DNA from: an uncultured Solibacteraceae bacterium
Lineage (GTDB): Bacteria > Acidobacteriota > Terriglobia > 20CM-2-55-15
Length of the DNA stretch: 52,668 nucleotides
Direction: 5' to 3'
Assembly: GCA_964584435.1 (NCBI GenBank)
Contig: CAZOZZ010000006.1
Coordinates: 1-52,668, forward strand
In this document: piece after piece, positions 7,444 to 52,668 of the stretch
Numbering within the stretch: position 1 is the stretch's first letter
How the letters are laid out: every line of letters starts with the position of its first letter
The notes under the pieces: generated by a model
Told to the model about the DNA's origin: nothing
The model's input: only the letters and a program-made list of their open reading frames with translations
The model's database searches: none
Position numbers and translations under genes: made by a program

Positions 7444-8238
7444 TCAGACCGCGGATTTGCCGGGCGGACGGAAGGGCGCGGAAGTTCGGACTGGAATCAC
7501 TCGTATCTCAGAACCATCGGTGCCGACAATCGCGGCGTCGAGCATTGGCGTGGTCCGCGGGTCGGTGGAAACTGCGACGGCTATGCGGCTTTCTTCTGAT
7601 AGCCTGATCAGCGCCAACCACCAATTTTCCGCGGTCTTCTCCGGTAAGGACGCTGAGATCGCCGACGGCGACCGAAGATCGAACGAGACTTGATCCAGCG
7701 CCACGGTGATTCCCACTCCGCACGCTTTCACGTATGCTTCCTTCAGCGTCCAGAGATCAAGGAAGCGCTGCGCTCGGGTCGAGGGAGCCGCAGCGGAGAT
7801 CTGCCGTTGCTCGTCAACGGAACAGACGCTTGGCATCAGCAAATCGACGTCCATTGTCCGCGAGCCGCATTCGGCATCGACTCCGACTTCAGCGTCACGG
7901 CTGACGACGCACGCCACGAGGCCATGCGTGTGGGACAGGCTGAAGCGAATTGGGGGATTCCCGGCTAGCGTGGCAGGCAGGTACGGTTTCCCGCCCGAAG
8001 TACGCTCGAACCGCCACTCCTCGGGCGGGATGTTCGGTGCGGCGGCCGTCAGCATCCGCCGAAGCAGTGCGTGTGCCGCGGCGTAATCCCGGCGATCCTC
8101 CGCAGCGCGGAAACGTCGAAGTTTGTTCGACCCTTCCGCGTCGAGCAGCGCGGCATCGCGCGCCACTTCGGCGTCCGTCATGCGTCGTGATGCAGCGCAG
8201 CGGAGACGCAAGAACGGGGATACGTTGCCATTCATCAT
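7444..8238 (-). CDS. Sfp-type 4'-phosphopantetheinyl transferase
   Basis: Motifs GGKPYL, FSLSHTHGLVACVV, GVDAE and WTLKEAYVKACGVGI (WxxKEAxxK). It lies 53 nt downstream of the TE-containing NRPS gene on the same strand. The start could be the internal Met at residue 20. Confidence 0.9.
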   Translation of the reverse strand: MMNGNVSPFLRLRCAASRRMTDAEVARDAALLDAEGSNKLRRFRAAEDRRDYAAAHALLRRMLTAAAPNIPPEEWRFERTSGGKPYLPATLAGNPPIRFSLSHTHGLVACVVSRDAEVGVDAECGSRTMDVDLLMPSVCSVDEQRQISAAAPSTRAQRFLDLWTLKEAYVKACGVGITVALDQVSFDLRSPSAISASLPEKTAENWWLALIRLSEESRIAVAVSTDPRTTPMLDAAIVGTDGSEIRVIPVRTSAPFRPPGKSAV

Positions 8239-8291
8239 ACGCGGAATTCCAGTCCAGGTTCTGCGGAGACCACACGGAGTGAACCTCCGCT

Positions 8292-11200
8292 TTAACGATA
8301 CTTGTCAGTTTCAGGCGTGAGGCCTCTTTTCGAAACGATCGTCACGATCAGGGAGGCATTCCGTTCGAGAAAAGGAGACGTCAGCATTCGGCGATGTTCA
8401 CCACTTCCCTGATGGAGGTGGAAGGCTCCCTTAGTCAAATCCGCCCAACGATCCAAAGAAGCCAGCATTCTGCCGTCTTCGCCCAGAACCGTCAGAGGCG
8501 AACCTTCAGCCCTGACCATGTGGATGTTCGCGTCGACACAGCCGGACTCGATACAGTCTCCCAGGAATTGCCGGTACTTCTCGATACGGACCAGGGCTTT
8601 TTCCCGCAATACACGACTGGATACCCCTTCAAGAAATTCCGCCGCCGCGTCGCGCATGTCCGCTTGCGAGAATTGAACCGGATAAAAATATCTTGCCGCA
8701 TCGAACAGAATCAGGTCCGAGACTCGAAGGCCCTCTTGCTCCAACTCCTGCGCAACCCGGAAAGCGAGCTTGCCGCCTGCAGAGAAACCGAACAGCACCA
8801 GCGGACTGCCATTCGACTTCTCGCGAATCAGCTTGACGTAGTCTTCAAGCCGCGAGTCGTGTTCGACAAAACTGAACCCATAGAAGGGACCCGGCAACAG
8901 CCTGGCCAGACTCTGGTATGCAAAGGGATACCCGGAACCGGGAGGGAACGCGAACAGCGCCGGCAGGTCCTTTCCCCGGTTAAACAAGACCATGGGCTGA
9001 TCGATCAAGTCACGGCCCAACCTGCTGGAATCGTCGATGTAAGCGGCAAGATCCCGCACGGTCTGAGCTCCCAAAATATCGGCGAGAGGAACCTCGACAC
9101 CGATTTCTTCTTGAATAGTTGAAATGAGTTTGACCGCCGTGAGGCTGTGGCCTCCGAGATCGAAGAAGTTATCCGTGGCACCGACGTCGGGCCGCCGCAG
9201 GAGGCGCTTCCAAATCTCGACCAACCGCGACTCCGTAACCGTCGCCGGAGGTTGGTGCGTTCCTTCGCGCCGACCCTCGAGAGGCGGCATGGGAAGCATG
9301 GCCCGATCGACCTTGCCGTTCACGTTCAACGTCAGCTCTTTCAGGATCACGAATTGAGAAGGCATCAGATAGTCGGACAGATGGACGCGAATATTCTCCC
9401 GTAGTTCCTCCACATCCAACTCATGCCCGGCGACAAACGCAATCAACTGGAAAACGCCATCACCCGGATCGCGTGCAACCGCTGCCGCGGCGGACACACG
9501 GGGGTGCCCAAGCAGCACGCTCTCCAGTTCCTCCAGCTCGATGCGGAAACCGCGGATTTTGACCTGGGTATCTATTCTTCCAAGAAAATCCAGCTCGCCG
9601 TCCCTCCGATGACGCACCAGATCGCCGGTCCGGTACAGCCGCTCACCCGCGATCGAAGGATGAGAAATGAACTTACGTCCTGTCAACTCATCGTCTTTCC
9701 AGTATCCGCGCGCGAGACCGTCGCCGCCAATGCAGAGCTCACCTGCCTCGCCGGGGAGCACTGGCTGAAGTTTGTCATCCAGCAGAATGGCCGTCGTGTT
9801 TGAGACGGGAATTCCAATCGGAACATCCGTTCCATGCGCGTGTGTGACGTCGTAGTACGTCGAAAATGTCGTGCCCTCGGTGGGGCCATACACGTGCTTC
9901 AGTTGAAGTTCGGGAAAAAGCGCGCGCACCGTGTTGAAATGATGCGCGGATGCCTTCTCGCCTCCGGTAAGAAGAAAGTGCAAGCCGGCGAACACACCCG
10001 CGCCTACTCCGGCCATTTGATTGAACAGACCGGTGGTGAGGAAGAGACCGGTGACGCCGTACTGCCGAATTAACCGGGTCAGCTCGACCGGACTGAGAAA
10101 AGATTTGCCTTCGGGCAGAACGACCGAGCCGCCGTTCAAAAGTGGTCCCCAGATTTCGAACGTTGAGGCATCGAAACTCAGCGCACCCGCCTGCAGAACA
10201 CGGTCCGCAGCATCAAGATCGATATAGTTCGTGTTGCGAACCAGGCGGACGATGGAACGGTGCTCGATCATGACGCCCTTTGGCCTGCCGGAGGTCCCCG
10301 ACGTGTACATCATATAAGCGAGCGATCCCGGTCCGGACCGATCGGATAAAGATTGAGCGTCCACTTTCTTGAGCGACGCACGATCGAACTGATAACGGTG
10401 GCGGTCCGATGGAGCAGGATGACTCCGTGTCTTGTCGATACGAATGAGCGCGTCATAGCCGAAACGAGAAAGCTCGCTCTCTGAGGATCCAATCATGGAG
10501 GAGAATTCGATTTCTGCTATCTCGGTAAAATCGAAACGGAGATCTTCCAAGAAGCTTTGGGAGATGAACAGCTCTTCGGTCCTGTCGAGCTTAGCGCGCC
10601 TGGCGCGTTCCGGATTCTGTCGTTTGAATTCGGCCAGAGACTTCAAAAACTCTTGTTTGAGATCCTGGTCCCATACGTTCCCAAGGAAGAGATAGCCTTC
10701 ACCCTTCAGCGACGCGATCGCTTTGCGGAGCACATCGCGGAAGTAGCCGTGACCGCGAAAGCATTCGATAACGCTGTTGATGACCACGACATCGAATCCG
10801 GTTTCGCCGGCTCGATCGATTTCATGCGCTGGAAGGGCGGCAAGCCGAATATTCGAAAGCTTCCGTCTTGCCACTTCCTGCTCTGCCCAACGCACAATCC
10901 CGGTCGAAAGGTCTGTTCCATAGTAGAAACCGACCAGCGGAGCAAGACGCCACATAGAAATTCCGGAAGCGCATCCGACTTCAAGCACCCTCGAAGAGTT
11001 ATCTAAATAGGGCGCCAGTTTCGTACGAATGTTCTCGCCGTACTCATCCATGACTTCCTGACTGAGCCATTCCCCTGTGTAACTACTGGTCCAACCGCCT
11101 CCTGAAATCTCATCGAAGGCTTGTTCGGCCACATACTCCCAAATGGCTGGATCCATGATGCCGCCGGACTCCTCGACTTCTGTTTTGACATCGTCGCTGT

Positions 11201-14200
11201 CGATACACATGAAATCTCGCAGGAGTGGGCATTCCCAGTGCAATTTGTGCGACAGCCCCAGATAGCGCTTCTCTGAAATGAGGACGCGCGCCTCCGTGTC
11301 GTCAAGCATCAGCCGCAAACGCTCGTGAGGCATGTCACCAGTAAGAGGGACGTAAGCCGCGCCCGACTTGAGAATGCCCAGGAGGGTGACGATCATCTCT
11401 GGCGAGCGGTCCAACAGAACGGCTACGAATTCCTCCTGGCGTACCCCTCTTTCCTGCAGAAACGCGGCCACTTCGTTCGACCTTCGATCCAACGCGCCGT
11501 ACGTCAATTCCGAGTGTCGGCAGATAACTGCCGTCCCAAGTGGCAACTTTTCCGCCTGCTCTGAGACGAGCGAGTGGACTGTTGAATACCGCGGATAGTC
11601 TGTTGCGGTCCGGATCAATTGATCGAGATCTTGCATGCGGAGCTTTTCGTCCACTGCGTTACGTGTCAGAGCACCTGCGGGTCTATCGTCCACTTCAGTC
11701 AACGCACGAGCGCCCTCTTCGATCGCCTTGAGAAGAGTTTCGGCAGTGGAAGGGAGAAAGAGACCCCCGTCGTATTCCAGCTCAAGCATCAGCCCCGAAT
11801 CTACCTCCGACACAAATAGGCACAGATCAAACTTTGAGGTTCGAGTGGGAACCTCGAATTCACGGGAATCGACGAAAGCCGACGACGCTTGTGCCAATTC
11901 CTCGCCCTCGAGACGGATATCCTGGAAACTCTGAAACCCGTAAATGACATTCAGTAGCGGCTGCCGATTTGCACAGCGCTCAGGATTCAGTTTCTCGATC
12001 ATCAGGTCGAATGGATATTCCTGATGGTCCAGGGCTTTGTTGCTGGATTGCACAACGCGAGCGACAATTTCGCTGAGCGGTGTGTCGGGTGCGATCCGAA
12101 TTCGGATGGGAAGCACGTTTACAAAGAAGCCAATGATGCGCTCTAACTCGCTACGATTACGATTCGCTGAACTCACGCCAATGCAGAAATCATCCTGACG
12201 CGACGTGGACCAGAGCGCCAGTGCGAACGATACCAGAATCACGTTCGACAGCGTCGCTCCCTTGTCGACGGCCAGTCTCGAAAGAGAGTCGAACAGCGAA
12301 GGATCAAACGTTAATCGAGCAGTCTCGCCGCGAAAGTCACGACGGTCCTCAGAAGGCCAGAAATCGCGAGGCAGTCGGATGCCTTCCGGCGCACCGGCCA
12401 GTGCTTCAAGCCAATACCCCTCGTCGGCCGAAAAATCGATGTGGTTCTGCCAAGCTGCAAAATCTTTGTAGTGAATGGGTACGGGCGGAAGCGGATCGGG
12501 GCGACGAGAACGGCTGGATTCGTACAACGCGAGCAGCTCGTTATACAAGACGATGAGCGACCAGCCGTCGCCGATAATGTGATGCATCGTCAGCAGCAAG
12601 ACATGTCTGGTGGGCGCAAGAGCCATCAGCGTGAAACGGAGGAGAGGCGCGGTCTCCAGATCGAACGGACTGGTCGCTTCGCGAACGGCCGCCGCGCGTG
12701 CCGCGTCTTCAGGCACCGCTTCGTGAGTCAGATCAAGTTCGACGAGAAGCGGTGCGACTTCGGGCGCAATGAACTGCTTCGGAGTCCCGTCTACGACCAC
12801 GAAGCTGGTTCGCAATGCTTCGTGTCGTCCCGCGAGCGCGACAATGGCTGTTCGTAACGAAACAACATCCAGCTCACCCTCGTAGATATGGGCTCTCGGC
12901 ATGTTGTAGGCGACCTGTCCGCCCATCTGGTGGAGAAGCCACAGTCGCCCCTGGGCATGCGACATGTCGTAGTGTGGCTGTGGCGAGACAGGTTCGATGC
13001 CCTCCACCGACGTTGGCTGTGCGGCTCGAATCAGTGCTGCCGTTTCTGCGACGGAGGACGCCGAGAGTAAGGACTCCGCCCGCAATGCAACTCCGAATTG
13101 CAGTTGAATGCGCGAGCGAACTTGCATGGCCTTCAGGCTGTGTCCACCCAACTCAAAGAAACTGACGCTGGGTCTCGGATTCTCTCCGAGGACTTCCGCC
13201 CAGATTCTGGCGACTTGTTCTTCGATGGGATCAGAAAACTCCCCCGAGTCGCTCTCCACTGCCCGCGCGAATACGGGCAGACGGGCGCGATCAATTTTGC
13301 CGTTCGTCGTTTGCGGTAACCTCGGAAGAAAAACGAATCGAGACGGGATCATGAAGTCAGGCAGCACCTGGTACAAGTGTTCCCGCATCTTCTGCGAATC
13401 GATATCGTTCGTGCTCTCGATGTAGGCGACCAGCAAGACCTCCGACCCCGCGTGGGCCCCAGTCGGAAGGCCCACAACAACCGACCGACTGACACCTGGA
13501 AGTGTCTCGATCGTCGCTTCGATCTCTGCGGGCTCTATCCGATACCCTCGGATTTTCACCTGGGCGTCGGCACGACCAAGATATTCCAGGACGCCTCCCG
13601 GCAGCCATCGCGCAAGATCACCGGTCTTGTAGATGCGCTCTCCAGGTCGATGTGGATCCGGAATAAATGACTTTTGGCTGAGATCGTCACGGTTCACGTA
13701 CCCCCGGGCGAGACCTGGACCTCCGACATGAAGCATTCCTGTAACGCCGACGGGCGACAGGCCGCACATCGCGTCCAGGACGTAGGCTCGGGCGTTGTCG
13801 ATGGGCCTGCCAATGGGGACGGTGGTCTGGCCGACCTTGGCCTCCTCCACCACGCAACCGACGGTTGCTTCAGTCGGACCATACTCGTTGAACACCCGCA
13901 TTTGCGGATTAAGACGATGCAGGATCCCAAGCTGTTTGGTAGAGAACGCCTCCCCACCGACGACAGCCAGACGAATCGGCGTCGAGGAGAGATCCAGATA
14001 CTCGATCAGAGAAACATGCGATGGCGTCAATTTGACACTGTCGATTCCGGCCCTTCCGCTGAAAACGTCTTCGAGAATGTCGGTCGTCTCCGCTTCCTGG
14101 GAAAAGACGACCAGTGTCTTGCCTCGCAACAACGGCAGAAATAGGCTGGTCACCGTCAGGTCGAACGACAGGGATGTGAATAATCCGAACGAGCCTCCTT

Positions 14201-42000: not shown

Positions 42001-45000
42001 CCGCGCCGGACTTCAGTACAGCGAGAATGCTGACGATCAAGTCCAGCGACGGATCGAGGCAAACCGCAACCATGCTCTCCGTCCCGATTCCTTTCGAGAG
42101 GAGATAATGCGCGAGTCGGTTCGCCTTGTCGTTCAACTCCCGGTACGTCAGTCGGTCTTTCTCACAAACGATGGCGATGCCTTCCGGACTTCGTTCCGCC
42201 CACTCTGCGATCACATCGGGTACCGAGGTGGAAACCGTGAAGTCTCGTTCGGCCTCGTGTAGCCGCAGCAGCCTCGCTTGCTCGCTTGGTGTCGACAGTG
42301 ACAACTTGCAGATCGGCTGGCTTGTGACGGTCGCGAGCGATTCGATGAGGTTTCCGTAGCTCGCCAGCAAACGCTCAGCGTCGTCGGATGAGTAGCGATC
42401 AATGCTGTAGTCGCAATCGAGGATCAGCTCTTCGCCGGTGTCGATCACGTTCAGCATCAATTCGAAATCTGAAAAGTGGACCGGATGCGGGAACAACCGA
42501 AGCGTCAGGTCTCCGGTGTCCGCCAGCTTTCCGGGCGTATCCAGGTTGAAGGTCGCCGATATCAACGGTGACCGGCTGAGGTCGCGGCGAGGATCGACAC
42601 TCTTGAGCAACGCGGCGAAGGGATAATCTGAATTCGTATACGCGTCGCCCAACACACGCCGAATGGTCGCGACATGTTCGGCAACCGTTGAATCGGGATC
42701 CACTTCGACGGGAACCGGCAGAATATGAGTGCAATAGCCAACAAGGGCGTCACTGTTCTCGAGACCTCGCCCAGCCACGGAAATACCGATCGATAACTCG
42801 CGCTGCCCCGTCAAGCCATGCATTAGAGCTGTGTAAACCGCATAGAGTCCAATGAACGGCGTGCACTTGAGTTCCGAACAGCAGGCGAACAAGTCTCTCC
42901 GCGCTGCGGACGATAGCGTCAACGTTGCCCGGCGGCTCTGGTAGGTTCGTTCCGCGGAGGGGATCGTGTCGGAAGGAAGGGCCAGGGGGGTCATTCGGCC
43001 GGAACATTTTTCCGTCCAGTAACGCTCCTGAGCTGCATAGGAGCTGGTTGCTGAAAACCGCTCCTGCCACTCGACATATTCCCGATATTGCATGGCCGGA
43101 CCGAGTTCCGGATTCAAGCCGCGACAGGCCAAAGAGTACAAGGAAAGCAGTTCCCCCATCATATTAGTCATGGACCATCCATCCGTAACGATATGGTGGG
43201 CTGTCATTACCAGGACGTGTTCATCGGCATCGAGACGAAGCAAGTCGCAATAGAACAGTGGGCCGGTGTCCAGCGCCATTGGGGTATGGTTCTTCTCTTC
43301 AAACCACCGCTCGATTGCCTGCTCTCTTTCCGAGCCGGCGACGGACGTAAAATCGACAATGCCAAGCTCTCTGGCCTCGTCTGGCAACACCCGCTGAAAT
43401 TCGCCCTGGAGATCGAATACGGTCCGAAGCGCTTCGTGGCGCTCGACAAGATGGCGCACGGACGCGTTGAGCTTCGCGCTGTCGATTGGGCCCCGTAACT
43501 TCAAGCTCAGGCCGGTTTGATAAGCGAGCGAGCCAGAAGGGTGTATCTGGGACATCAGCAGCAACTGACGCTGCGCTTCGGTTAGAGGAAAGGTGTCCTG
43601 CGGAGAAGACGAACCAGCCTGTGCGCCTGGAGCAATGAAACCGCCCGAGCGCAATTCGTCGATCGCAGACTCTGCGGAGCGTACGACGTGATCCAGGTCG
43701 TCTTCCGTGTGCGCCGTCGACAGGAAACATCCCCTCCACTCCCACACGTAAACGCCTTTTTCGATCAGGTGGTAAAAAAACAGGTCCAGGTTGCCGGTAA
43801 ACTGAATACGGAAAGCGGATCCAAAATTTACAGCGTGCAGCGGCGCGTTACGCTCGTCGAAAGCTCGATTCAGACGGACGGCCAGTTCCTCGGTGCGCCG
43901 ATTCAGGCCCTCTTGCAGTGCGGGCCCCTGCCGTTTCAACTCGTTCAGAGTCGCCACTGCCGCGACCATGGTCAGCGGATGCTGACAAAATGTTCCACCG
44001 AAGAACGTTCGTTCCGCACCGGGCAACGAATCATCCCCATAGTTCCAGGCTCCGCCGTCGATCCCATCGAGAAACTCCCGCTTCCCCGCGACCACTCCGA
44101 TCGGCATGCCTCCACCGATCACCTTCCCGTAAGTGACGATGTCCGCATCGATACCGAAATAGGCCTGCGCACCTCTTGGGTGCAGCCGGAAGCCGGAGAT
44201 CATCTCGTCGAAGATCAAAGCCACTCCACCGTCACGCGTGACGTTGCGTAAGTCGCGAAGAAACTCGACGGGCTGAAAATCGAGACTGAGGTTTTGGACG
44301 GGTTCTACCAGAACGGCGGCGATTTCGTCCTGGTGCTTGCGAATGTAGTCCAGCGCATCCGACGATCCATATTCGAGGACGATCGTTGCGGCAATAGACT
44401 CCGGTGGAATTCCGGGCGCCATGGCCTCGCTTGCCGGCACGCCCTCGATCTCGGCCGGCAGAACCAGCGTCTGGTCGGAATGGCCGTGATAGCTACCCGC
44501 GAACACGACCAGAAGCCGCCTCCTGGTGGACGTCCGGGCCAGGCGGATGGCGGCCATCACCGCTTCAGTTCCGGAGTTACAGAAAGACGCGCGCTCACTG
44601 CCGGTCAAATCACAAATGAGCGCTGCAGCCTCGCCCGCCAGTTCCGAGCGCGGGCCCAGGAGTATTTCCTGACCAGCATGCTCTCGAAAGGCATTCGTCA
44701 AGAACTCCGGGTGATGTCCGAACAGGGTGACGCCAAACCCATTGGTGATGTCGATGTATTCATTTCCGTCCAGGTCCCAGAACCGCGAACCTGCCGCACG
44801 AGCGCCGACGATAGGATAGAGAATCTCCTTGAGTGGAAGCCGGAATCCGACACTTGCCCGGCTGTCCGCCAAAACGTCACGGTATTGTGCAGCATGATGC
44901 TTGGACTTTGCCGTCCGCCTTGTATATCTCTTAATCAAGGCTGTAACGTGACGCTGTTGCTGTGGGGTGAACGATACGCCGAAACGATCGCCGCGGCTGG

Positions 45001-48000
45001 ACACATGTCGTGTCTTTCCCCTCTTCGAAGGTTTCGACGCCTGCGCCGCAGGAGCTTCCGCTACGGCCCGGGGCACCACAGCCTTGCCGTCAACTTCACG
45101 CAACATCTCAAGCTGCCGCCGCATGATCTCGAGTTGGTCGTTGACGATCTGATGAAGACTTCCGGCAGTTGCATCCGCAGGGATCATTGCGCCCGGAACA
45201 ACCGGCAAGTCGTCCGTGGACGGTGGAGTTGCCCGATCCAGCAGAAGATCCGCCTCGGGAGGAACTGTCTCGTCCGCAATGTGTCGCGCCAAGGCGCCCA
45301 CCTCGGACAATGCATCGAGCAGATCTGCAAGCTGGATCGTCAACCCGAATCGTTGCTTCACCAACCGATTAACCTTAATCAGTGCCAGTGAATCCAGACC
45401 GAGTTGGAAAAAGGAATCCGCACCGTTGATCTTCCCCTGCGGTATTCCAGACACCTCGGAAACGGTCTCGAGAACTCCCGCAAGCACTCGATTGAAGTGG
45501 TTATCGTCTTTCACCGTGATTGTCGATGCTGTAGGTGTTGGATTTGAAACGTCAGTTTGACCGGAAACGTCTGCTTCCGCAAGACGATGCCGCGCAATCC
45601 AGAAGCTCTCGCGCTCGAAGGGATAGGGAGGCAGCCGGACCCGCCTTCGCTGCTCGAATGCATAGAATCCGCTCCAGTCGACTGCGGCCCCGGAGACCCA
45701 AAGCCGCCCGAGCGTCTCCAGAAGCAGTTCGGAATCCGCCCGCTCAACCTGTGGATGGCGCAAGGAAGTCAGCACGAGCGGCGCTTCCGCCCCAGCGCAA
45801 TTCTGGATCGTCAACGTCGCAAGTGTCCGGCCAGGCCCAACTTCCAGAAGGATCCGGCTTGAATCTTGCGTCAGTGTCTGTATGGCCGTCGAAAAACGCA
45901 CGGGTTGCCGCATGTGACGGACCCAGTATGCAGGATCCATCGACTCCTCGGGCGTGATCCATGTTCCGGTCAGATTGGAAACCCAGGGAATCTGGGGCTG
46001 CGAAAACGAGAGGGCTTCCAGGAATCGGCTGAACTCGTCCAGAACCGATTCCACTTCCCGGGAGTGGGCGGGTGCAGAAAAATGAAGGTCGGCAAACTCC
46101 ACATCAGCGGAACTCAACTTCGACTTGAGATCGGAGATTTTGTCTGCCGGACCTGAAACCACGCACGATTCAGGAGCATTGACGGCAGCGAGCGAAAGCC
46201 CTTCATTCAGGTAAGGCGCCAAGTCGCCTTCGGACAGGCACACACTGAACATTCGCCCCTTCGGAAGTCCCTCAAGTAATCGTCCCCGCAGAACAACGAG
46301 TGACAGAGCATCGTCCAGACTGAAGACACCCGAAATGCAGGCAGCGACGTATTCACCGAGGCTGTGTCCGATCATAGCCGCTGGTCGAATTCCCCAGGAG
46401 ATCCACAACTGCGCCAGTGCGTACTCGGTAGTGAATAGTGCAGGTAGCAATAACGAAGCGGAATCCATGCAATCCCCAACTGTGCCGCTTCCGAAAATCA
46501 CGTCCCGGATGTCCACACCCAGAGGGGTCTCTAATTTTTCAGCACAAGAATCCAGATGCTGCCTGTACGCAGGCTCGGAACGATATAATCCCTCCCCCAT
46601 TCCGACGTATTGCGACCCTCCGCCGGGAAACAAAAAAGCTATACTCCGGGCTTCGGTCGCAATCTCGCCAACATCAGAGACCGGTTCGCGTTCCGAGGCG
46701 ACCGCCGAATCGGTCGCGTAGAGATAGAACTGCCGAGCTGAAAACTCCCGACGTCCGCATGCCAGAGTAAAAGCCGCGTCCTCCAACGAGACTTCGGCGT
46801 TCTCACGAAGAAATTTGACCAGCTCCGCGCCAGTCCGGGTTAACGCACTCGCGGTCTTTGCAGAAGCCACCAGCAGTTGATGAGGCCGTGTCGAAACGGT
46901 GACGGGTTCCGTTGCCGGAGCCTCTTCCAAGACCACGTGAGCGTTGGTTCCCCCAAGACCGAATGAGCTCACGGCAGCCCGCCGGGGCTGCCCCTGGGTC
47001 GCCCCCCACTCCGTAAGCCTCGTATTGACAAAGAAAGGTGTGCGGGCGAAGTCGATCTCCGGGTTAGGATCCTCAAAATGCAGGGTAGGTGGAATCTGCT
47101 TATGATGAAGCGACAGCGCCGCCTTGATCAGGCCGACCACGCCGGCCGCGGTGTCCAAATGCCCGATGTTGGATTTAACGGAGCCAATGGCACACCTGCG
47201 GACTCCATCGCCTCGGGCACCGCCATACGCCCGGCTTAGCGCCGCGACCTCCAGGGGGTCGCCAACCAAAGTGCCGGTTCCATGCGCCTCCACGTATCCG
47301 ATCGATCCCGGGTCGACCCCAGCAACGGATAAAGCTTCCAGAATGACCTGGGTTTGACCCTGCACACTCGGCGCGGTGAAACCCGCCTTCACATCTCCAT
47401 CATTGTTGACGGCGGAGCCACGAATGACGGCGTGAATGTGATCGCGGTCCGAGAGCGCCTCCGGTAGCCGCTTCAGCACGACGATCGCGACGCCGCTTCC
47501 AGCCGAAATTCCTCCTGCCTTCGCGTCAAAGGGGCGGCAGCGTCCGTCCTTCGATAGAATTCCTCCTTCGACGTACAAGAAGCCTTCATCCTGAGGAACG
47601 GGGATGCTGGCCCCGCCCGCGAGCGCAATTTCGCACTCGCCACTCAGAATGCTCTGGATGGCCAAATGAACGGCCACCATTGAAGTAGAGCATGCTGTGG
47701 CAACGGTGACACTTGGCCCCTCGAGTCCGAGCTTGTAGGAAACGCGACTTGCCAGAAAGTCCTTTTCGCTTGCCGTGAGGAGTTCGTGGTAATCGGTCTG
47801 CTGCATCAGCGCCGGATCGCTCGCGAGATTGTGCAGCAGGTATGTGTTCATGCCACAGCCGGCAAACACCGCGACGCGGTCGTGCGGACGGCCGTGAATG
47901 TAGCCGCAACCTTCCAGGGCATGCCACGACGATTCGAGAAACAGCCGCTGTTGCGGATCCATCAACTCCGCCTGCCGGGGCGTGTAGCCAAAGAATGCGG

Positions 48001-48241
48001 CATCGAAGAGGTCTGCCCCGTCGATGACTGCTCGACTCCGGACATACTTCGGATCGTTGAAGAGAGCACTATCTACGCCGGCACGCCGTAGAGTCTCCTC
48101 AGGAATCTCTCTTACGGAATCGACGCCGTGGCATAGATTGCTCCAAAACTCCTTCGCGTCTCGCGCGCCCGGCACGCGACACTCGATTCCGATGATCGCA
48201 ATGGAACTGTCCGGGTCTATGCCGATCTCGGGAGAGACCAT
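39026..48241 (-). CDS. hybrid PKS-NRPS: KS-AT-ACP-AMT-C-A-T-E (3,071 aa)
   Basis: KS (ATACSTS Cys184, EAHGTGT, SNIGH). AT (IAFLFPGGGSQ aa 534; GHSLGE; APAHS). ACP (LGLDSL, Ser951). Class-III (GSA-type) aminotransferase domain, aa about 1085-1535 (LDGNEYIDITNGFG, CNSGTEAVMAAIRLAR, IFDEMISGFR, TYGKVIGGGMPIG with putative PLP Lys1373). C (AHHIVTDGWS). A (YTSGSTGKPKG from Tyr2153; code DFWNIGMVHK). T (LGGDSIIAM, Ser2558). E (LLPAQRWFFDQ; HHLISDGVS). Confidence 0.97.
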   Translation of the reverse strand: MVSPEIGIDPDSSIAIIGIECRVPGARDAKEFWSNLCHGVDSVREIPEETLRRAGVDSALFNDPKYVRSRAVIDGADLFDAAFFGYTPRQAELMDPQQRLFLESSWHALEGCGYIHGRPHDRVAVFAGCGMNTYLLHNLASDPALMQQTDYHELLTASEKDFLASRVSYKLGLEGPSVTVATACSTSMVAVHLAIQSILSGECEIALAGGASIPVPQDEGFLYVEGGILSKDGRCRPFDAKAGGISAGSGVAIVVLKRLPEALSDRDHIHAVIRGSAVNNDGDVKAGFTAPSVQGQTQVILEALSVAGVDPGSIGYVEAHGTGTLVGDPLEVAALSRAYGGARGDGVRRCAIGSVKSNIGHLDTAAGVVGLIKAALSLHHKQIPPTLHFEDPNPEIDFARTPFFVNTRLTEWGATQGQPRRAAVSSFGLGGTNAHVVLEEAPATEPVTVSTRPHQLLVASAKTASALTRTGAELVKFLRENAEVSLEDAAFTLACGRREFSARQFYLYATDSAVASEREPVSDVGEIATEARSIAFLFPGGGSQYVGMGEGLYRSEPAYRQHLDSCAEKLETPLGVDIRDVIFGSGTVGDCMDSASLLLPALFTTEYALAQLWISWGIRPAAMIGHSLGEYVAACISGVFSLDDALSLVVLRGRLLEGLPKGRMFSVCLSEGDLAPYLNEGLSLAAVNAPESCVVSGPADKISDLKSKLSSADVEFADLHFSAPAHSREVESVLDEFSRFLEALSFSQPQIPWVSNLTGTWITPEESMDPAYWVRHMRQPVRFSTAIQTLTQDSSRILLEVGPGRTLATLTIQNCAGAEAPLVLTSLRHPQVERADSELLLETLGRLWVSGAAVDWSGFYAFEQRRRVRLPPYPFERESFWIARHRLAEADVSGQTDVSNPTPTASTITVKDDNHFNRVLAGVLETVSEVSGIPQGKINGADSFFQLGLDSLALIKVNRLVKQRFGLTIQLADLLDALSEVGALARHIADETVPPEADLLLDRATPPSTDDLPVVPGAMIPADATAGSLHQIVNDQLEIMRRQLEMLREVDGKAVVPRAVAEAPAAQASKPSKRGKTRHVSSRGDRFGVSFTPQQQRHVTALIKRYTRRTAKSKHHAAQYRDVLADSRASVGFRLPLKEILYPIVGARAAGSRFWDLDGNEYIDITNGFGVTLFGHHPEFLTNAFREHAGQEILLGPRSELAGEAAALICDLTGSERASFCNSGTEAVMAAIRLARTSTRRRLLVVFAGSYHGHSDQTLVLPAEIEGVPASEAMAPGIPPESIAATIVLEYGSSDALDYIRKHQDEIAAVLVEPVQNLSLDFQPVEFLRDLRNVTRDGGVALIFDEMISGFRLHPRGAQAYFGIDADIVTYGKVIGGGMPIGVVAGKREFLDGIDGGAWNYGDDSLPGAERTFFGGTFCQHPLTMVAAVATLNELKRQGPALQEGLNRRTEELAVRLNRAFDERNAPLHAVNFGSAFRIQFTGNLDLFFYHLIEKGVYVWEWRGCFLSTAHTEDDLDHVVRSAESAIDELRSGGFIAPGAQAGSSSPQDTFPLTEAQRQLLLMSQIHPSGSLAYQTGLSLKLRGPIDSAKLNASVRHLVERHEALRTVFDLQGEFQRVLPDEARELGIVDFTSVAGSEREQAIERWFEEKNHTPMALDTGPLFYCDLLRLDADEHVLVMTAHHIVTDGWSMTNMMGELLSLYSLACRGLNPELGPAMQYREYVEWQERFSATSSYAAQERYWTEKCSGRMTPLALPSDTIPSAERTYQSRRATLTLSSAARRDLFACCSELKCTPFIGLYAVYTALMHGLTGQRELSIGISVAGRGLENSDALVGYCTHILPVPVEVDPDSTVAEHVATIRRVLGDAYTNSDYPFAALLKSVDPRRDLSRSPLISATFNLDTPGKLADTGDLTLRLFPHPVHFSDFELMLNVIDTGEELILDCDYSIDRYSSDDAERLLASYGNLIESLATVTSQPICKLSLSTPSEQARLLRLHEAERDFTVSTSVPDVIAEWAERSPEGIAIVCEKDRLTYRELNDKANRLAHYLLSKGIGTESMVAVCLDPSLDLIVSILAVLKSGAAYVPLDPSYPVERLSLILDDCRAPILITTSRVGELLGDRDALEAILLDADDPQITRCSAENPVSKLQPESLAYVIYTSGSTGKPKGVLVQHSQLARLFSATQPSFEFNNRDVWTLFHSCAFDFSVWEIFGALTYGGRLVIAPYWIRRDASAFHRLVCDEAVTVLNQTPSAFREFMRADADSSRDPKLRLIIFGGEALDLETLGPWFERHGDRLPELVNMYGITETTVHVTYRPLTSGDAKLIGSRRIGRPIPDLSFYVLTSELMPSPMGVVGEVFVGGAGVARGYLNRPELTRERFIASPFRPGDRLYRTGDLARLLPDGDIEYRGRADNQLKLHGFRIEPGEIEAALRAHSEIEDVVVNARKTQDSDANTHLVAYIVFRDGSSPAATTELREFCAGRLPGHMVPTFFLAIDRIPLTRNGKLDRAALPTPRDGSAEVLEAYAAPRDTVESGLASIWAEVLGLRQVGIFDNFFELGGDSIIAMQVVSRARAAGLPISIRDVHRFPTVAELALVPDSVSAGSTPEIAAVASESRLLPAQRWFFDQNQPNPDHHNMSLHLDIAPGTSSELLGQALDRVAAHHPALRSWFEKDSDGWIRHVDPKGGSIPLEVYPDGSTSFDSIARRLQESLTLSEPPLVRAALFESSEGNPGRLLLVLHHLISDGVSCRILTEDLETAYQQLQSGSPVLLLPTNPVEAWIAQLDHEVQSGGFVKELPYWREIVTVKTASLPLDLNASPDSNTVATEAHATLALDRDPTKLVLGSLSKSGRIRMDDALLGCLTQALAVWLGDCKLLVDLEAHGRETLGRVDPTRTIGWFTSIYPFLLKIHGGRPLGETIREIQETRSRVPRHGLGFSVLKYLGDDPAVRKELGVARTEILFNYLGQFDQVAGGSLVVGIDEGDRAHERSLANRSSHRIEINSWILDGRLLVDFAFSSAMYRDETIQALANSFESSLRELCQPVTESALEPETDLSEVGLRRVLQSIGPDRGSGSEG
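43640..44975 (-). other. aminotransferase (AMT) domain inside the 3,071-aa PKS-NRPS
   Basis: See the parent CDS. Putative PLP lysine codon at about 44123-44125 (TYGKVIGGG). Confidence 0.85.
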
Positions 48242-48244
48242 GGA

Positions 48245-51200
48245 CTATTCGCCTCCCTCGCTGGTGCTGCCGGCACGGCTGGCTTTGCGGGCACTCCTTT
48301 GCTGTGCGCGGTTAGTCCGTCGCACTTCCGGTACGACTGTCCGTGTCAGCCCGGAGAATCCAGCATCGCCGGTATGTGAGATAGCCCCGGCTAACATGTG
48401 GATCGTCGGGTACTCGAACATCTCCCTCATCGAAGGCAACCGGCCGAATGAGGCCTCGCCGATCCGACGTCTTACACGAACCATCACCAACGAATCTCCA
48501 CCCAGATCAAAAAAATTGTCGTGTATACCCACCTGGTCGATCCGCAGCTCTTCCGCCCAGATGGCCGCGATGCTGGCCTCGACGTGATTCAACGGTTGGG
48601 CGAGTTCTTCGGAGAGCTTCGGCCGTCTCTCCCCCGGCGACGGCAAAGCGCGAAGGTCGATCTTTCCGTTCGCCGTGAGTGGAAACGACGCCAGGGTCAT
48701 GAACGAAGACGGCAGCATATAGTCGGGAAGAGTCTGCTGCAGGAAAGCACGCAACTCGGACACGGAAGGCGGATCGGCCGGATCTGCAGCAATCACATAA
48801 GCTCGCAACTCGGCGTCACCGGAAAGACCTGCCCGTTCGGGAAAGTGAGCTGTGACTACGCAATCGTGCACTTTGGGATGCCTCGCGACGCTCGCCTTGA
48901 TCTCTTCGGTCTCGACTCGATATCCCCGTATTTTGACTTGACCGTCTTTCCGTCCCAGAAACTCGATATCTCCGTCGGAAAGATACCTGGCGAGATCCCC
49001 GCTACGATAGACACGTGCGCCCGGCTCGTCGCGGAACGGATCGGCCAGGAATCGTTCTGCGTTTAAATCAGGTCGGTTCAGATAGCCCGCCGCCACGCCG
49101 GCACCGCCGACATAGATCTCCCCCGCGACGCCGACTGGTACTGGTTTGCCGACCGAATCGAGGATGTAGATCCACATGTCCTCCATTGCTGGACCAATGA
49201 CGCTTCGGCCCACTGCCACGTCGGCCTTCACCAGCCGACGATACGTGGTATGGACCGTTGTTTCAGTAATGCCATACATGTTCATGACGCGAGGGCTTTC
49301 ATCACCGTGCCGTTCGAACCATCCGGCAAGATCCTTGACTGCAACTTCTTCGCCCCCCAGGATGACCCAGCGGAGCCTGAGCCGCAGCTCGGCATCACGC
49401 TGTTCTTCCGCCTTCATCAGCTGCTTGAAAGCGGAGGGTGTCTGAGTGAGCATCGTCACCTTGTGTTCGCTGAGCCATCTATAATAATCGTCGGGTGAGC
49501 GACTGACCCAATAAGGAATGATCACCAGTTTTCCGCCGTGCCCGAGACATGCGAATATCTCCCAAACCGAAAGATCGAAAGCGAAGGAATGAAACAGGGT
49601 CCAGATGTCCTGGGGGCCGAACTCGTAAAGAGAGGAAGTCGATTGAAGCAGCCTCACTACATTGTAATGAGTGATGATCGTCCCTTTGGGCCTTCCGGTC
49701 GATCCGGACGTGTAGATCAGGTATGCGGGATCGGATGGCGACGGACGCCTTGCTGAAGTAGGGTTACTCGCGGACTGGCTGAAATCGAGCGAGTCCATGG
49801 ACACGAATTCGACGCCGTCCGCGGAAACCGCCATCGGGTCCGTCCCGACCACAACACGTACTCCAGAATCCGTAAGCAGCAATTCCTGACGTTCCACCGG
49901 GTAGGCCGGATCGATAGGCACGTACGCACCACCTGCCTTCAGTATCCCCACAATCCCGGTCACGAGATCCGACGATCGTTCCATACAAATCCCAACAAAA
50001 GCACCCGGTCGGATACCTTGCACGGTAAGATGCGCAGCGACGATGTTCGCCCGGCGATTCAGTTCGCTGTAGGTCAGCGGGACTCCCTCAAAAGAGATCG
50101 CTTCTGCGTCCGGGGAGCGTTCCACTTGTTCCTCGATCAGGTCTACCAGCGTTTTGCAAGGAGCATGGGTCACGCGGTCGGGGTGAAAGCCAGTCAACAC
50201 AAGTTCTCGTTCGTCCGGAGGAAGGATGGCCAGATCTCGGATCGCCGTGTCTGGGTGACTCACAATCTCTTCAAACAGGAACAAGAGCTCCCGCTTCAAG
50301 AACTCGATCGCCTCAACCGAAAACGCCGTAAGGCTGTGGTCGATGTTCATCCGAACGTCCAGCTCTTCGTTGTATTCGCTGACCTCGATCGCCAAAGGCG
50401 TCTTCTCCGACCCGTGGCGCATGCTCACTTGCTCCACCTGAATCCCATCAAATTCAACAGCATAGTTGTGTTTTTGATAGGTCAGAACGATGTCGTAGAG
50501 CTGCGGACGCCCTTCCTTGTGCAGGCCCACGCGCCGGTTGATCTCGTGCAACGGGCAACGCTGGTGACGGTAGTCTTTTCGCAGCTCCCTACCGATCGCT
50601 TTCAGTAGCTCGACGACGCTCAGATCCAGGCCAAGGCGGAACCACGAAGGCGTAACGCTGGTGAACAGGCCCACCGTCCTCTTGAGAACGGCATTGCTAC
50701 GGTTGAGCGTTGGAAGTCCAATGATGAAGTCCTCTCGCCCCTCCGGCTGAGCAAATCGAATGTAGAGCGCTGCCAGGATCAAATGGAAGGTGGAAACGCC
50801 GTGTGACGAGGCAAAAGACTGCATCCGATCGTACAATTGCCTCGAAATCATCAGGACCGACCGTCGACTTCGTATTTCCGTGCCAAACCCCTGGCGCTCG
50901 ATCATCGCGGCCGGTATGGACTGAAATCGTTCCTCCCAATATCGAAGGTCTTCGGCCAATCGCCTGGAGTGCGCCACATCCGTTTCTTTCAGGACGTAAT
51001 CGGCGAACGATCCGCGTGGAATGGGATCCCCCGCATCTCCTGACACAAGCGAGCTATAGATCACGGCCAAATGTTGAACCAACAAGGAATGCCCGTAGGC
51101 GTCGATGATCAGATGGTGGTAAACGTGAAACCAGGAGTATTCGTCGTCGGAAAGCCGAGCGAAGGCAAAATAAAAGAGGGGCTCACCAAACATCGTGAAC

Positions 51201-51529
51201 GGAACGTCGATGCGATGGCTCATCCAGGCGGCCCATTCCTCACGGGCCCCAGCCTTCGAAGAAAGGTCAAAGTAATCAAGCGCAGGTCGGAAATGCGGCA
51301 GGACTTCCTGTTCAGGCACATCCCCGGCTTCACGCAAGACGATCCGAAGCGCGTCGTTCTCCTCGATCAAGATTCCGATGGCACGCTCAAACAGGTCGCG
51401 GTCTATCGGGCCCCGAAACCGAAGGTGCCCGCCCATATTGTAAAAGGGCTTGTCCTGGTGCACCATCTGGTCGAACCAGATACCATTCTGACAAGCTGTC
51501 AGCGGCAACGTCCCCTTGGTGCTACTCAT
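48245..51529 (-). CDS. NRPS loading module: C(starter-like)-A-T (1,094 aa)
   Basis: N-terminal C domain (LPLTACQNGIWFDQ...; YHHLIIDAYG, HH 138-139). A (LKAGGAYVPID, YTSGSTGRPKG aa 606-616, FDLSVWE, NMYGITETTVH, NGKIDL; code DLWTIGMVHK). T (LGGDSL, Ser1013). Basic C-terminal tail of about 40 aa. AGGGAGGA lies 5 nt upstream of the ATG. Confidence 0.95.
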   Translation of the reverse strand: MSSTKGTLPLTACQNGIWFDQMVHQDKPFYNMGGHLRFRGPIDRDLFERAIGILIEENDALRIVLREAGDVPEQEVLPHFRPALDYFDLSSKAGAREEWAAWMSHRIDVPFTMFGEPLFYFAFARLSDDEYSWFHVYHHLIIDAYGHSLLVQHLAVIYSSLVSGDAGDPIPRGSFADYVLKETDVAHSRRLAEDLRYWEERFQSIPAAMIERQGFGTEIRSRRSVLMISRQLYDRMQSFASSHGVSTFHLILAALYIRFAQPEGREDFIIGLPTLNRSNAVLKRTVGLFTSVTPSWFRLGLDLSVVELLKAIGRELRKDYRHQRCPLHEINRRVGLHKEGRPQLYDIVLTYQKHNYAVEFDGIQVEQVSMRHGSEKTPLAIEVSEYNEELDVRMNIDHSLTAFSVEAIEFLKRELLFLFEEIVSHPDTAIRDLAILPPDERELVLTGFHPDRVTHAPCKTLVDLIEEQVERSPDAEAISFEGVPLTYSELNRRANIVAAHLTVQGIRPGAFVGICMERSSDLVTGIVGILKAGGAYVPIDPAYPVERQELLLTDSGVRVVVGTDPMAVSADGVEFVSMDSLDFSQSASNPTSARRPSPSDPAYLIYTSGSTGRPKGTIITHYNVVRLLQSTSSLYEFGPQDIWTLFHSFAFDLSVWEIFACLGHGGKLVIIPYWVSRSPDDYYRWLSEHKVTMLTQTPSAFKQLMKAEEQRDAELRLRLRWVILGGEEVAVKDLAGWFERHGDESPRVMNMYGITETTVHTTYRRLVKADVAVGRSVIGPAMEDMWIYILDSVGKPVPVGVAGEIYVGGAGVAAGYLNRPDLNAERFLADPFRDEPGARVYRSGDLARYLSDGDIEFLGRKDGQVKIRGYRVETEEIKASVARHPKVHDCVVTAHFPERAGLSGDAELRAYVIAADPADPPSVSELRAFLQQTLPDYMLPSSFMTLASFPLTANGKIDLRALPSPGERRPKLSEELAQPLNHVEASIAAIWAEELRIDQVGIHDNFFDLGGDSLVMVRVRRRIGEASFGRLPSMREMFEYPTIHMLAGAISHTGDAGFSGLTRTVVPEVRRTNRAQQRSARKASRAGSTSEGGE

Positions 51530-52250
51530 CTCGATCCTCCCTGAGATGTGTGTCGCTCAGAGGAGGTGATCCAAACGCCAGCCGGGTCGCAATAAACGTT
51601 GAAACTTCAGCAGCACACTCCGAAAGGAAAAAGTGGCCGCCCGAAAACCAGACAACCTCGATCGGGTGACTCGTTTGGAGCTGCCACTGACGCGCTTCGT
51701 TTTCAGAGACATCGTCTCGATCGCCCACCATGACAGTGATCGGCACATCCAGGGCACGACCGGGCCTGTAGACATATTCGTCGACGAGGCGAAAATCCGC
51801 TCTCAATATCGGTTCAAATATCTCCATCAATTCATCGCTATTCAGGACATCATCGGAACAACCGAGGGCGCGCAAGATGGTCGCGAATTGATCGTTTGGC
51901 AGGTTCCATCGAACTTTGTCGCGGTCCAGGCCCGGAGCGCAGCGACCCGATACGAAGAGACGGGAAGGGAGATTCAATCCCGACGCCTGCAGCCTCCGAA
52001 CCAGTTCAAAGGCAATCAGGGCGCCCATGCTATGTCCGAGGATCGCGAATGGGCTCTCGTTCCTGCGCGCAATTTCGGGTAAGACGTCGTCGACAGCCCT
52101 TCGGAGGTCGGTCAACAAGGGTTCGTCGGATCGTCGTCCTCTTCCAGGCAATTCGGACGTTAAGAGTCGCACCTCATCGGAGAGCGAGGAACTGAGTTCG
52201 CGATAACACCAGGCGTCTCCACCTGCAAACGGTAAGGCGAATAGTTGCAT
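51522..52250 (-). CDS. type II (editing) thioesterase
   Basis: MQLFALPFAGGDAWCYREL N-terminus, GHSMGALIAFE nucleophile elbow, 242 aa. Its stop overlaps the start of the loading NRPS by 8 nt. Confidence 0.9.
   Translation of the reverse strand: MQLFALPFAGGDAWCYRELSSSLSDEVRLLTSELPGRGRRSDEPLLTDLRRAVDDVLPEIARRNESPFAILGHSMGALIAFELVRRLQASGLNLPSRLFVSGRCAPGLDRDKVRWNLPNDQFATILRALGCSDDVLNSDELMEIFEPILRADFRLVDEYVYRPGRALDVPITVMVGDRDDVSENEARQWQLQTSHPIEVVWFSGGHFFLSECAAEVSTFIATRLAFGSPPLSDTHLREDRDE
51535..51542 (-). promoter_or_regulatory. Shine-Dalgarno-like AGGGAGGA for the loading NRPS gene (inside the TEII 3' end)
   Basis: The minus strand reads ctcAGGGAGGAtcgagATG. Confidence 0.5.
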
Positions 52251-52344
52251 TAGATCGCATCGGTGACGTGGGAATCATGGTCGAACTCAGGATCACTACT
52301 TGCACCTATCATCACCGCTCTCGAACTCGCTTGGGATTCCGCAC

Positions 52345-52515
52345 CTACCGAGAAGGAACGCTCTTACGATCAGACGCCAACACCAACAGCAATCCCATGA
52401 GCGGCGTAAGGAATACCGAACACAAGAAGTAGCCCCAGAAACCTAATTTGCGATCACGTCCAAAACTCGCTATGAGACCACCAACACCGATGTAGACCAA
52501 AGCCTGCAAAAGCAT
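52345..52515 (-). CDS. small membrane protein, 56 aa (below the ORF-track size cut-off)
   Basis: Hand translation: MLLQALVYIGVGGLIASFGRDRKLGFWGYFLCSVFLTPLMGLLLVLASDRKSVPSR*. Two hydrophobic helices. GGAGG (52525-52529) lies 9 nt upstream of the ATG. Confidence 0.45.
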   Translation of the reverse strand: MLLQALVYIGVGGLIASFGRDRKLGFWGYFLCSVFLTPLMGLLLVLASDRKSVPSR

Positions 52516-52668
52516 GATCAAACACCTCCACTACTATTGTTACACCTACCGAAACGCTGGCAGGTAAGCCATCAAGCAACGGACCTTCAAGATCGCCTTC
52601 ACGTAACGTCGCAGGGGCTCTCAAACAATCCTTCTTCCGTCAATTAGATTCATCACTGCACTAGTCCG

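Follow-up and report, generated by a model that had tools for sequence, protein, structure and literature searches.

Among the described systems closest to the locus reported here are two in which a polyketide synthase (PKS) module carries an in-line aminotransferase (AMT) and hands its chain to a nonribosomal peptide synthetase (NRPS). In the iturin/mycosubtilin line, MycA is loaded through a fatty-acyl-AMP ligase/ACP region, its AMT transaminates a beta-keto thioester and a 'hybrid C' domain follows, with the free beta-amine the likely macrocyclisation nucleophile; in microcystin synthetase, McyE runs in the order KS-AT-ACP-AMT-C-A-T (ketosynthase, acyltransferase, acyl carrier protein, AMT, condensation, adenylation and carrier domains). 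Here we compare with them a hybrid NRPS/PKS operon at positions 7444-52250 of a 52,668-nucleotide contig (CAZOZZ010000006.1 of assembly GCA_964584435.1; this whole stretch is called the window below) from an uncultured Solibacteraceae bacterium of the Acidobacteriota. We read the region as a single operon that encodes a collinear line of hybrid NRPS/type I cis-AT PKS type, with its own phosphopantetheinyl transferase (PPTase) and type II thioesterase (TEII); all of its parts belong to described classes, and what is new is their combination and their source.

The open reading frame (ORF) coordinates bear out the seven co-directional genes of the initial annotation, all on the minus strand like every domain described below. 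An editing TEII (gene 1, 51522-52250, 242 aa; PF00975 at 2.6e-41, motifs GHSMG and GGH) is followed by five megasynthase genes, namely g2 (48245-51529, 1094 aa), which encodes the loading module C1-A1-T1; g3 (39026-48241, 3071 aa), with KS1-AT1-ACP1-AMT-C2-A2-T2-E2, where E stands for epimerisation; g4 (23961-39029, 5022 aa), with Cx-C3-A3-T3-C4-A4-T4-KS2-AT2-KR-ACP2-C5-A5-T5, where KR stands for ketoreductase; g5 (16133-23968, 2611 aa), with C6-A6-T6-C7-A7-T7-E7; and g6 (8292-16136, 2614 aa), with C8-A8-T8-C9-A9(MT)-T9-TE, which carries an embedded methyltransferase (MT) and a terminal thioesterase (TE). A Sfp-type PPTase (gene 7, 7444-8238, 264 aa; PF01648 and PF22624, a HetI-like model, motifs GVDAE and WTLKEAYVK) completes the set. 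Spacings from TEII through PPTase are, in order, -8, +3, -4, -8, -4 and +53 nt, such that genes overlap or abut as expected of a translationally coupled operon, and the reading frame runs for ~45 kb without a stop codon or frameshift.

Domain classes were assigned with Pfam and NCBIfam profiles, and boundaries were set by iterative hidden Markov model (HMM) searches, for which domains of the window itself served as seeds. Every domain class was confirmed at E-values of 1e-40 to 1e-250, which excludes chance, and the mapping reproduced the 9 NRPS and 2 PKS modules previously proposed, collinear from a first C-A-T to a last TE, while adding one decayed condensation domain (Cx) that had been missed. 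Domain identities, domain order, active-site integrity and specificity codes can be read directly from the window: there are 9 A domains, 9 intact C domains (HHxxxD), 2 E domains and 11 carrier domains that all keep their Ser, and catalytic motifs are kept in KS1 and KS2 (Cys and His/His), the AMT (Lys for pyridoxal phosphate, PLP), the KR (Rossmann motif and Tyr/Asn), the TE, the TEII and the PPTase. The AMT and KR logic first proposed for the line stands. No MbtH-like motif occurs in any frame, no transporter or regulator is encoded in the operon or in the small flanking ORFs, and, as already noted, no such gene and no acyl-activating gene interrupts the operon. Recent module duplication was considered and rejected: no two A domains share more than 48% identity, the DNA repeats are conserved-motif stretches of 60-77% identity, and the window's modules, which show no recent repeats, are old and divergent.

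Compared with microcystin synthetase, g3 repeats the domain order of McyE, the code of A3 begins with DPRH as does that of the gamma-Glu-activating McyE domain, and the condensation domain of McyA, which follows a Ser/Thr module giving Mdha/Dhb, is the closest solved relative of C7. The AMT module here, however, receives an (acyl-)aminoacyl thioester from an NRPS and not a phenylacetate-derived polyketide, the DPRH domain stands two modules after the AMT whereas in McyE it follows directly, the two systems share little identity overall, and their peptides are unlike in length and composition. Compared with the iturin line, the window shares KS-AT-ACP-AMT followed by C-A-T, but in place of a fatty-acyl-AMP ligase/ACP loading region it has an amino acid primer loaded through C-A-T, and it adds a second PKS module (with KR), nine amino acids instead of seven, a putative dehydrating-type C domain and an N-methyltransferase. 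We therefore rejected membership of the iturin family, in which acyl-ligase loading and a heptapeptide with no further PKS module are the rule, because the line has no acyl-ligase loading, carries a second PKS module and specifies nine residues. The pairing of iturin-style AMT logic with a non-fatty-acyl starter, singled out in the initial annotation, is present but not unique, as McyE-type modules and many Acidobacteriota loci with an NRPS to PKS(AMT) to NRPS order have it too.

The predicted chain, in order, would comprise an acylated Thr-like residue extended by a C2 unit bearing an amine, D-allo-Thr, an acid linked through its distal carboxyl, Thr extended by a C2 unit bearing a hydroxyl, Gly, dehydrobutyrine (Dhb), D-allo-Ile or D-Val, Asn, and N-methyl-Ile/Val. 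A hand sum of residue masses gives ~1014 Da for a cyclic core and ~1032 Da for a linear one (Glu at position 3, Dhb at position 6 and Ile at positions 7 and 9 assumed, acyl group excluded), and on its codes the product should be a threonine-rich peptide-polyketide hybrid with a core of ~1.0 kDa plus the acyl group. We regard the mechanism set out below, taken as a whole, as probably the best explanation of the operon. If expressed, it would yield a new ~1.0-1.2 kDa scaffold from an uncultured lineage, whose two unusual polyketide units, both derived from amino acids, would be a 3,4-diamino acid and one of statine type. The prediction is detailed enough to guide chemical synthesis (syn-BNP) or work in a heterologous host.

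Adenylation codes, the dehydrating-type domain and chain release

To assign substrates, we read the ten-residue codes from a MAFFT alignment of the nine A domains to GrsA; the reference sequence yields DAWTIAAICK at positions 235-517, which validates the numbering. Extraction agreed letter for letter with all nine codes that had been read by hand. Three domains, A2 (40661-42265), A4 (31785-33407) and A6 (20918-22516), share DFWNIGMVHK, a Thr code, and A1 (48590-50185) has DLWTIGMVHK, which is Thr-like at 8 of 10 positions. A5 (24276-25811) has DILQLGVIWK, a Gly code that is frequent in identical or near-identical form among relatives. A8 (13227-14780) reads DLTKVGEVGK and has Glu at position 322, the mark of Asn codes, Asp codes having His there; by comparison with the published codes A8 is predicted to activate Asn, so of the earlier Asn/Asp call the Asn half is kept and the Asp half is not. 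A7 (17708-19258) carries DAFFMGVTFK, an Ile/Val-like code one substitution from the DAFFLGVTFK of the interrupted A9 (9234-11624), which points to Ile with Val as a minor substrate: the same code in OciB/OciC of Planktothrix cyanopeptolin incorporates Ile and, to a minor extent, Val (PMC2533009). A full-text literature search for six distinctive codes found only DAFFLGVTFK, with the codes of A1, A3, A7 and A8 in no paper, and searches with the prefixes DPRH, DLWTIG, DAFFMG and DLTKVGEV returned only irrelevant papers.

Module 3, previously called unassignable, has an A domain (A3, 34983-36554) with the code DPRHFGFQAK. Of the NCBIfam models, TIGR03443 (Lys2 alpha-aminoadipate reductase) fits it best, scoring 338 bits across profile positions 237-750, ahead of the generic adenylation model with 327 bits; the control A4 gave 163 bits on TIGR03443 and 430 on the generic model. 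It is not a true Lys2, since there is no A-T-R arrangement with a terminal reductase and 338 bits lies far below the 1030-bit whole-protein cut-off; by these profile scores A3 is a Lys2-type A domain working within a C-A-T elongation module. The yeast Lys2 code is DPRHFVMRAV and that of the gamma-Glu-activating McyE domain is DPRHSGVVGK, and we tentatively suggest from this likeness that the residue added by module 3 may be an acid resembling Glu or aminoadipate, linked through its distal carboxyl; it tells against the suggestion that the comparison leans on these two codes and that the DPRH domains retrieved included no characterised one. The codes DPRHFGFQAK, DPRHFAFQAK, DPRHFVLRSK and DPRHFVYRAK recur among anonymous environmental NRPSs. 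A Lys2-like family of DPRH-code modules was seen in proteins P0121-P0226, and a related code, DPRNFVFRAK, occurs in proteins that also bear a TauD-type dioxygenase domain.

Position 6, given as Thr in the initial annotation, is the place where the condensation domains change the prediction most directly. C7 (19337-20599) comes after the Thr module 6, from which no E domain separates it, fails the epimerisation model TIGR01720 and keeps an intact HHAILDGWS motif, and its top match among solved structures is the McyA condensation domain 8JBR (193.6 bits); AmbE 7R9X scores 132.5, TycB 97.5, SrfA-C 87.5 and the LCL domain of Txo1 69 bits. NaPDoS places the microcystin domain in its 'modified AA' clade, which is linked to dehydration of Ser to dehydroalanine (PMC3315503). 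To evaluate the context of such domains, we collected 257 C domains standing directly after an A-T pair in fetched proteins and loci; of the 38 that come behind Ser/Thr modules 8 were C7-like, and of the 219 behind others none was (Fisher p = 1.2e-7). Because C7-like domains are found only after Ser/Thr modules, position 6 is probably dehydrobutyrine, and we favour, with some reserve, the reading of C7 as a dehydrating C domain that would both condense and dehydrate Thr6.

A rival reading holds that C7 is an ordinary or dual epimerisation/condensation domain, such that position 6 stays Thr (L-Thr or D-allo-Thr). It gains some weight from the scores of C7 against the first PvdL C domain (170 bits) and the DCL-type domains of McyB and BacC (137-138 bits), and the context test itself is weakened by a set partly retrieved with Thr-module queries and by having only 8 informative cases. 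The ranking of C7, with McyA first and AmbE above TycB and SrfA-C, is nevertheless the reverse of that of the bona fide DCL domain C8 (14781-16118), which matches BacC, SrfA-C, McyB and TycB at 294-354 bits, and the absence of C7-like domains after the 219 other modules contrasts with C8-like domains lacking an E domain, which in the same fetched set follow Pro, Leu, Thr and other residues. We consider a non-dehydrating C7 rather unlikely and retain dehydrobutyrine at position 6.

C8 is consistent with the E domain upstream of it, E7 (16139-17464), which passes TIGR01720 narrowly (74.4 bits against a cut-off of 74.2). E7 would epimerise Ile/Val7, C8 would accept the D-configured chain, and Asn8 would be added next.

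The second PKS module (27228-31517) consists of KS2 (TACSSS), AT2 (GHSLGE), a KR (GGTGGVG and YAAAN, with no LDD) and ACP2; a KR without the LDD motif is A-type by the usual rule. AT1 (45782-46651) and AT2 (29097-29954) both carry GHSLGE and both match the FabD model, so both are likely to use a malonyl extender; this call is less certain than usual because the domains have the FabD-like APAHS and VAAHS in place of the textbook HAFH or YASH, which counts against it. Thr4 extended by KS2-AT2-KR-ACP2 would give a statine-like 4-amino-3,5-dihydroxyhexanoyl unit, to which Gly5 and Thr6 would be added.

The methyltransferase (10377-11234) lies inside A9, between core motif A2 at residue 1589 of g6 and A3 at ~1944. 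Domains inserted at the A2-A3 site are of two kinds, type IV, which methylates sulphur, and type V, which N-methylates the backbone, type IV having Ala in place of the S-adenosylmethionine (SAM)-binding Asn (PMC8341866). All five type V motifs are present here (GGWTSSY, VLEVGCASG, FYYGTDLS, DVVVINSVIECFRGHGYF and SELSRFGY), with V in motif ii where the consensus has I/L, and DVVVINSVIECFRGHGYF holds the SAM-binding Asn (consensus NSV(V/I)(Q/E)). The insert measures ~286 aa between alignment breakpoints, compared with a published 270 +/- 6 aa, it lacks the C-terminal ~120 aa of type I domains, and its sole match among solved structures is the TioS domain 5WMM. The domain thus shares its insertion site, all five motifs and the SAM-binding Asn with the family 4 interrupted A domains of TtbB type (A2-M(V)-A3; PMC8341866) and differs in substrate code, which is for Tyr in TtbB and for Ile/Val in A9. 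Side-chain methylation was ruled out, as the motifs are those of a backbone N-methyltransferase. Residue 9 is very probably N-methylated by a type V domain of this family, such that N-methyl-Ile/Val9 would be formed on the carrier protein; the methylated Ile/Val proposed earlier for this position agrees with both the motifs and the A9 code.

The line ends in a type I TE (8367-8966; PF00975 at 6e-20) with a GFSAG Ser and its Asp and His. It would release the chain by macrolactamisation onto the free 3-amine, by lactonisation onto a Thr hydroxyl or by plain hydrolysis. By analogy with the iturins the first may be the route taken, though we put it somewhat short of even chances.

Loading module and aminated front end

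Evaluating the start of the line, we found that C1 (50204-51514, active site HHLIIDA) resembles starter-type condensation domains, a group of which the lipo-initiating members have been described as Cstart domains (PMC8949500). Its best solved relatives include 7C1H, 7C1K and 7C1P (1.6e-34, 123 bits), and C1-like domains in fetched relatives stand at the protein N-terminus in 11 of 11 cases. These three structures are of the starter C domain of rhizomide synthetase RzmA, which likewise opens a first module and has no acyl-activating gene dedicated to it; this is a distant match, and a bacitracin synthetase C domain scores as well on C1 as 7C1H does, a point against the reading, with CDA and surfactin starter domains lower. 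The starter-like character of C1 makes an N-acylated chain probable, and on balance we predict that C1 is a starter domain which would N-acylate the first residue with an acyl-CoA taken from primary metabolism. The aminoacyl starter proposed at first would accordingly be an N-acyl-aminoacyl starter.

An alternative is that C1 is not lipo-initiating and that the first residue has a free or otherwise modified amine, or else that an NRPS encoded farther upstream, past the end of the contig, supplies the donor for C1, which would make the cluster incomplete in the window. The window and the public contigs listed all end ~280-420 bp upstream of the TEII gene, no acyl-activating gene is encoded in the window, neither an acyl ligase nor a free-standing ACP for a starter acyl group, and the similarity of C1 to solved starter domains is only moderate. 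Against this, no NRPS gene stands ahead of the C-A-T gene in two relatives, where TEII, PPTase or small ORFs take that place, every C1-like domain in the fetched set lies at an N-terminus, and starter C domains such as RzmA-Cs take acyl-CoA directly, without a dedicated ligase. We judge the alternative unlikely and keep acylation by C1 as the preferred start.

The code of A1 is unique among 518 A domains from the fetched relatives, which leaves its substrate uncertain and speaks against a firm Thr call. Its nearest code, however, is canonical Thr, and DFWNIGMVHK is found in both of the loading modules most closely homologous to it, so our best guess from these comparisons is that A1 loads Thr or something closely similar. 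One malonyl unit would then be added by KS1-AT1-ACP1, and the AMT (43742-44821), a class III PLP aminotransferase (PF00202 at 3.4e-46; a hemL-type model at 262 bits; Lys in YGKVIGGG), would turn the 3-keto group into an amine to give an N-acyl-3,4-diamino-5-hydroxyhexanoyl unit.

The domain after the AMT, C2 (42266-43600), is of the 'hybrid C' type. Its group among the fetched domains comprises 24 members, none with an NRPS A domain just upstream and all located in AMT-bearing loci, and it corresponds to the post-AMT 'hybrid C' clade of NaPDoS, which holds the microcystin, iturin and mycosubtilin domains (PMC3315503). C2 would couple the diamino unit to Thr2, and E2 (39029-40441; HHLISDG, EAHGRE and FNYLGQ; TIGR01720 at 90.4 bits against the cut-off of 74.2) would epimerise Thr2 to D-allo-Thr. 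Both E domains of the initial annotation are therefore confirmed, while their expected products are D-allo-Thr and D-allo-Ile (or D-Val) and not the 'D-Thr' given there, and the configuration at position 2 is not secure for the reasons that follow.

The junction between g3 and g4

Between E2 and C3 lies an in-frame, decayed domain, Cx (37926-39029; g4 residues 1-368), of DCL type. Its active site reads YHRALLDRW in place of HHxxxDG, such that the catalytic His is lost, several internal deletions affect the C-lobe, only the N-lobe of the C profile is matched (positions 3-179, E = 4e-43), and TIGR01720 is not passed. None of the best 120 database homologues listed for g4 residues 1-1420 covers the Cx region; that search apparently lists proteins up to ~1.75 times the query length and did not return the 3998-aa gene at the equivalent place in L040, the related metagenome contig described below. 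That L040 gene opens with an intact DCL domain (HHHILLDGW), behind which come a T domain and C-A, and for this reason Cx is best read as the relic of a DCL domain that formerly received the D-configured chain from E2.

C3 (36594-37925) is LCL-like although it stands after E2 in the line: Txo1/Txo2, 5U89 and TycC6 rank at 246-357 bits and SrfA-C at 111 bits. A dead Cx and an LCL-like C3 behind an E domain form an inconsistent stereochemical logic that could mean partial decay and that weighs against a fully working line; they also leave the D configuration at position 2 insecure. On this view transfer from g3 to g4 is impaired, and the line would make no product, a truncated shunt product, or its product only by module skipping. 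Cx without its catalytic His and parts of its C-lobe, the LCL-like C3, and the resolvase and GIY-YIG-like genes that adjoin the cluster all fit such decay. Against it stand the ~45-kb open frame, the intactness of all catalytic motifs other than that of Cx, the preserved start-stop overlaps between genes, and the retention of Cx in frame, where it may have been kept as a docking partner of the E2 C-terminus. We hold partial decay to be quite improbable and a functional line to be the better account.

Relatives, novelty and cluster borders

To place the operon among its relatives, we scanned the g3 protein (3071 aa) against 185,579 GTDB species genomes and JGI metagenomes, which revealed best-segment identities of 40-50% and no match with the same module order or codes; a megablast of g3 against plasmids gave only two short spurious matches. 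The closest proteins to the loading module are three anonymous metagenome sequences at 49-54% identity (a member of L040, P0002 and P0005). That the cluster copies an already characterised biosynthetic gene cluster is, given these scans, highly improbable. The earlier finding of no high-identity known cluster holds for the searched collections (plasmids, GTDB genomes and JGI metagenomes), and the novelty call rests on these genome and metagenome scans: the operon is an orphan cluster, probably of an uncultured soil-type bacterium, with no close characterised relative in those collections, and one of very many orphan NRPS/PKS clusters.

L040 is a 55.8-kb contig (JGI 3300063339, Ga0599171_0000504) whose genes run ABC transporter, Band7, TEII, PPTase, C-A(Thr)-T and KS-AT-ACP-AMT-C-A(Thr)-T-E. 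It resembles the window in having a TEII, a PPTase and a starter-C-A(Thr)-T protein, then an AMT-PKS/Thr/E protein, at full-length identities of 52% to g2 and 50% to g3; it differs in that the next gene starts with an intact DCL and T (an A-less module) and in that PPTase, TEII and ABC transporter are all upstream. The front end kept at ~50% identity argues for a functional pathway family. Upstream of P0002 a TEII gene was also seen, and by these comparisons a small family of related orphan clusters exists. At positions 8323-9925 of L040, the space between TEII/PPTase and the loading module holds the gene of a membrane protein of 147 aa, rich in Glu and Pro, together with a pair of small paralogous ORFs of 68 and 78 aa; they are absent from the window.

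The best genome matches are Pyrinomonadaceae/Acidobacteriota metagenome-assembled genomes (MAGs; L001-L015), whose AMT is 59-61% identical and which share the NRPS to PKS(AMT) to NRPS order. They differ in their codes, DVENVGAVTK and DYVSRASLMK and then Ile, and lack both a C1-like loading module and a DPRH module, and on these differences we assign them to another cluster family. Loci L001-L005, L009, L011 and L013-L015, from Pyrinomonadaceae and other Acidobacteriota MAGs, share one recurrent cluster type, in the order A(DVENVGAVTK, Ahp-like), A(DYVSRASLMK), PKS plus AMT, and C-A(DAFFLGVTFK).

Together with L040, and perhaps P0002 and P0005, the window could belong to an undescribed family of N-acylated peptide-polyketide hybrids from uncultured bacteria, possibly Acidobacteriota, with a vicinal 3,4-diamino acid made by an amino-acid-primed KS-AT-ACP-AMT as hallmark, although we advance this grouping with considerable reserve. 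If it holds, the present member adds a Thr-derived statine-like unit, an iso-linked acid, dehydrobutyrine and a C-terminal N-methyl residue, and a protease-inhibitor or membrane activity would be plausible for the scaffold. For NRPS enzymology the operon offers three natural experiments, none of which overturns current understanding, namely a Lys2-type A domain in an elongation module, a putative dehydrating-type C domain outside cyanobacteria, and a decayed C domain that persists with an E domain on one side and an LCL-like C domain on the other.

Concerning its borders, the operon had been called self-contained, with the caution that it might continue past the right edge of the window. Three of three listed contigs with the TEII gene (L037, L038 and L039), like the window itself, end ~280-420 bp upstream of that gene, which leaves self-containment unproven and suggests that assemblies are interrupted there by a repeat or by sequence that varies between strains; in L040, an ABC transporter and regulator-like genes lie upstream. 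The right flank of 418 bp (52251-52668) holds only a 56-aa membrane ORF (52345-52515), which is called as a gene in other assemblies and shows one mismatch in a tblastn alignment.

Directly beyond the PPTase end of the operon lies a serine resolvase gene (6053-6670, minus strand) and beside it a weak GIY-YIG-like ORF (5237-5959, minus strand), and GC content steps from ~0.553 in the left flank to 0.57-0.60 in the cluster. These neighbours and the GC step hint that the cluster borders or belongs to a mobile region. Farther out, the left flank encodes a DUF4344 metallopeptidase (3935-5041, minus strand), and homologues of it on long contigs (L041 and L042) are 69-72% identical and flanked by transposase/integrase genes with no NRPS nearby, such that this neighbourhood is not conserved with the cluster. 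The remaining gene (940-2439, plus strand) encodes a WD40 beta-propeller protein of 499 aa with at least five repeats.

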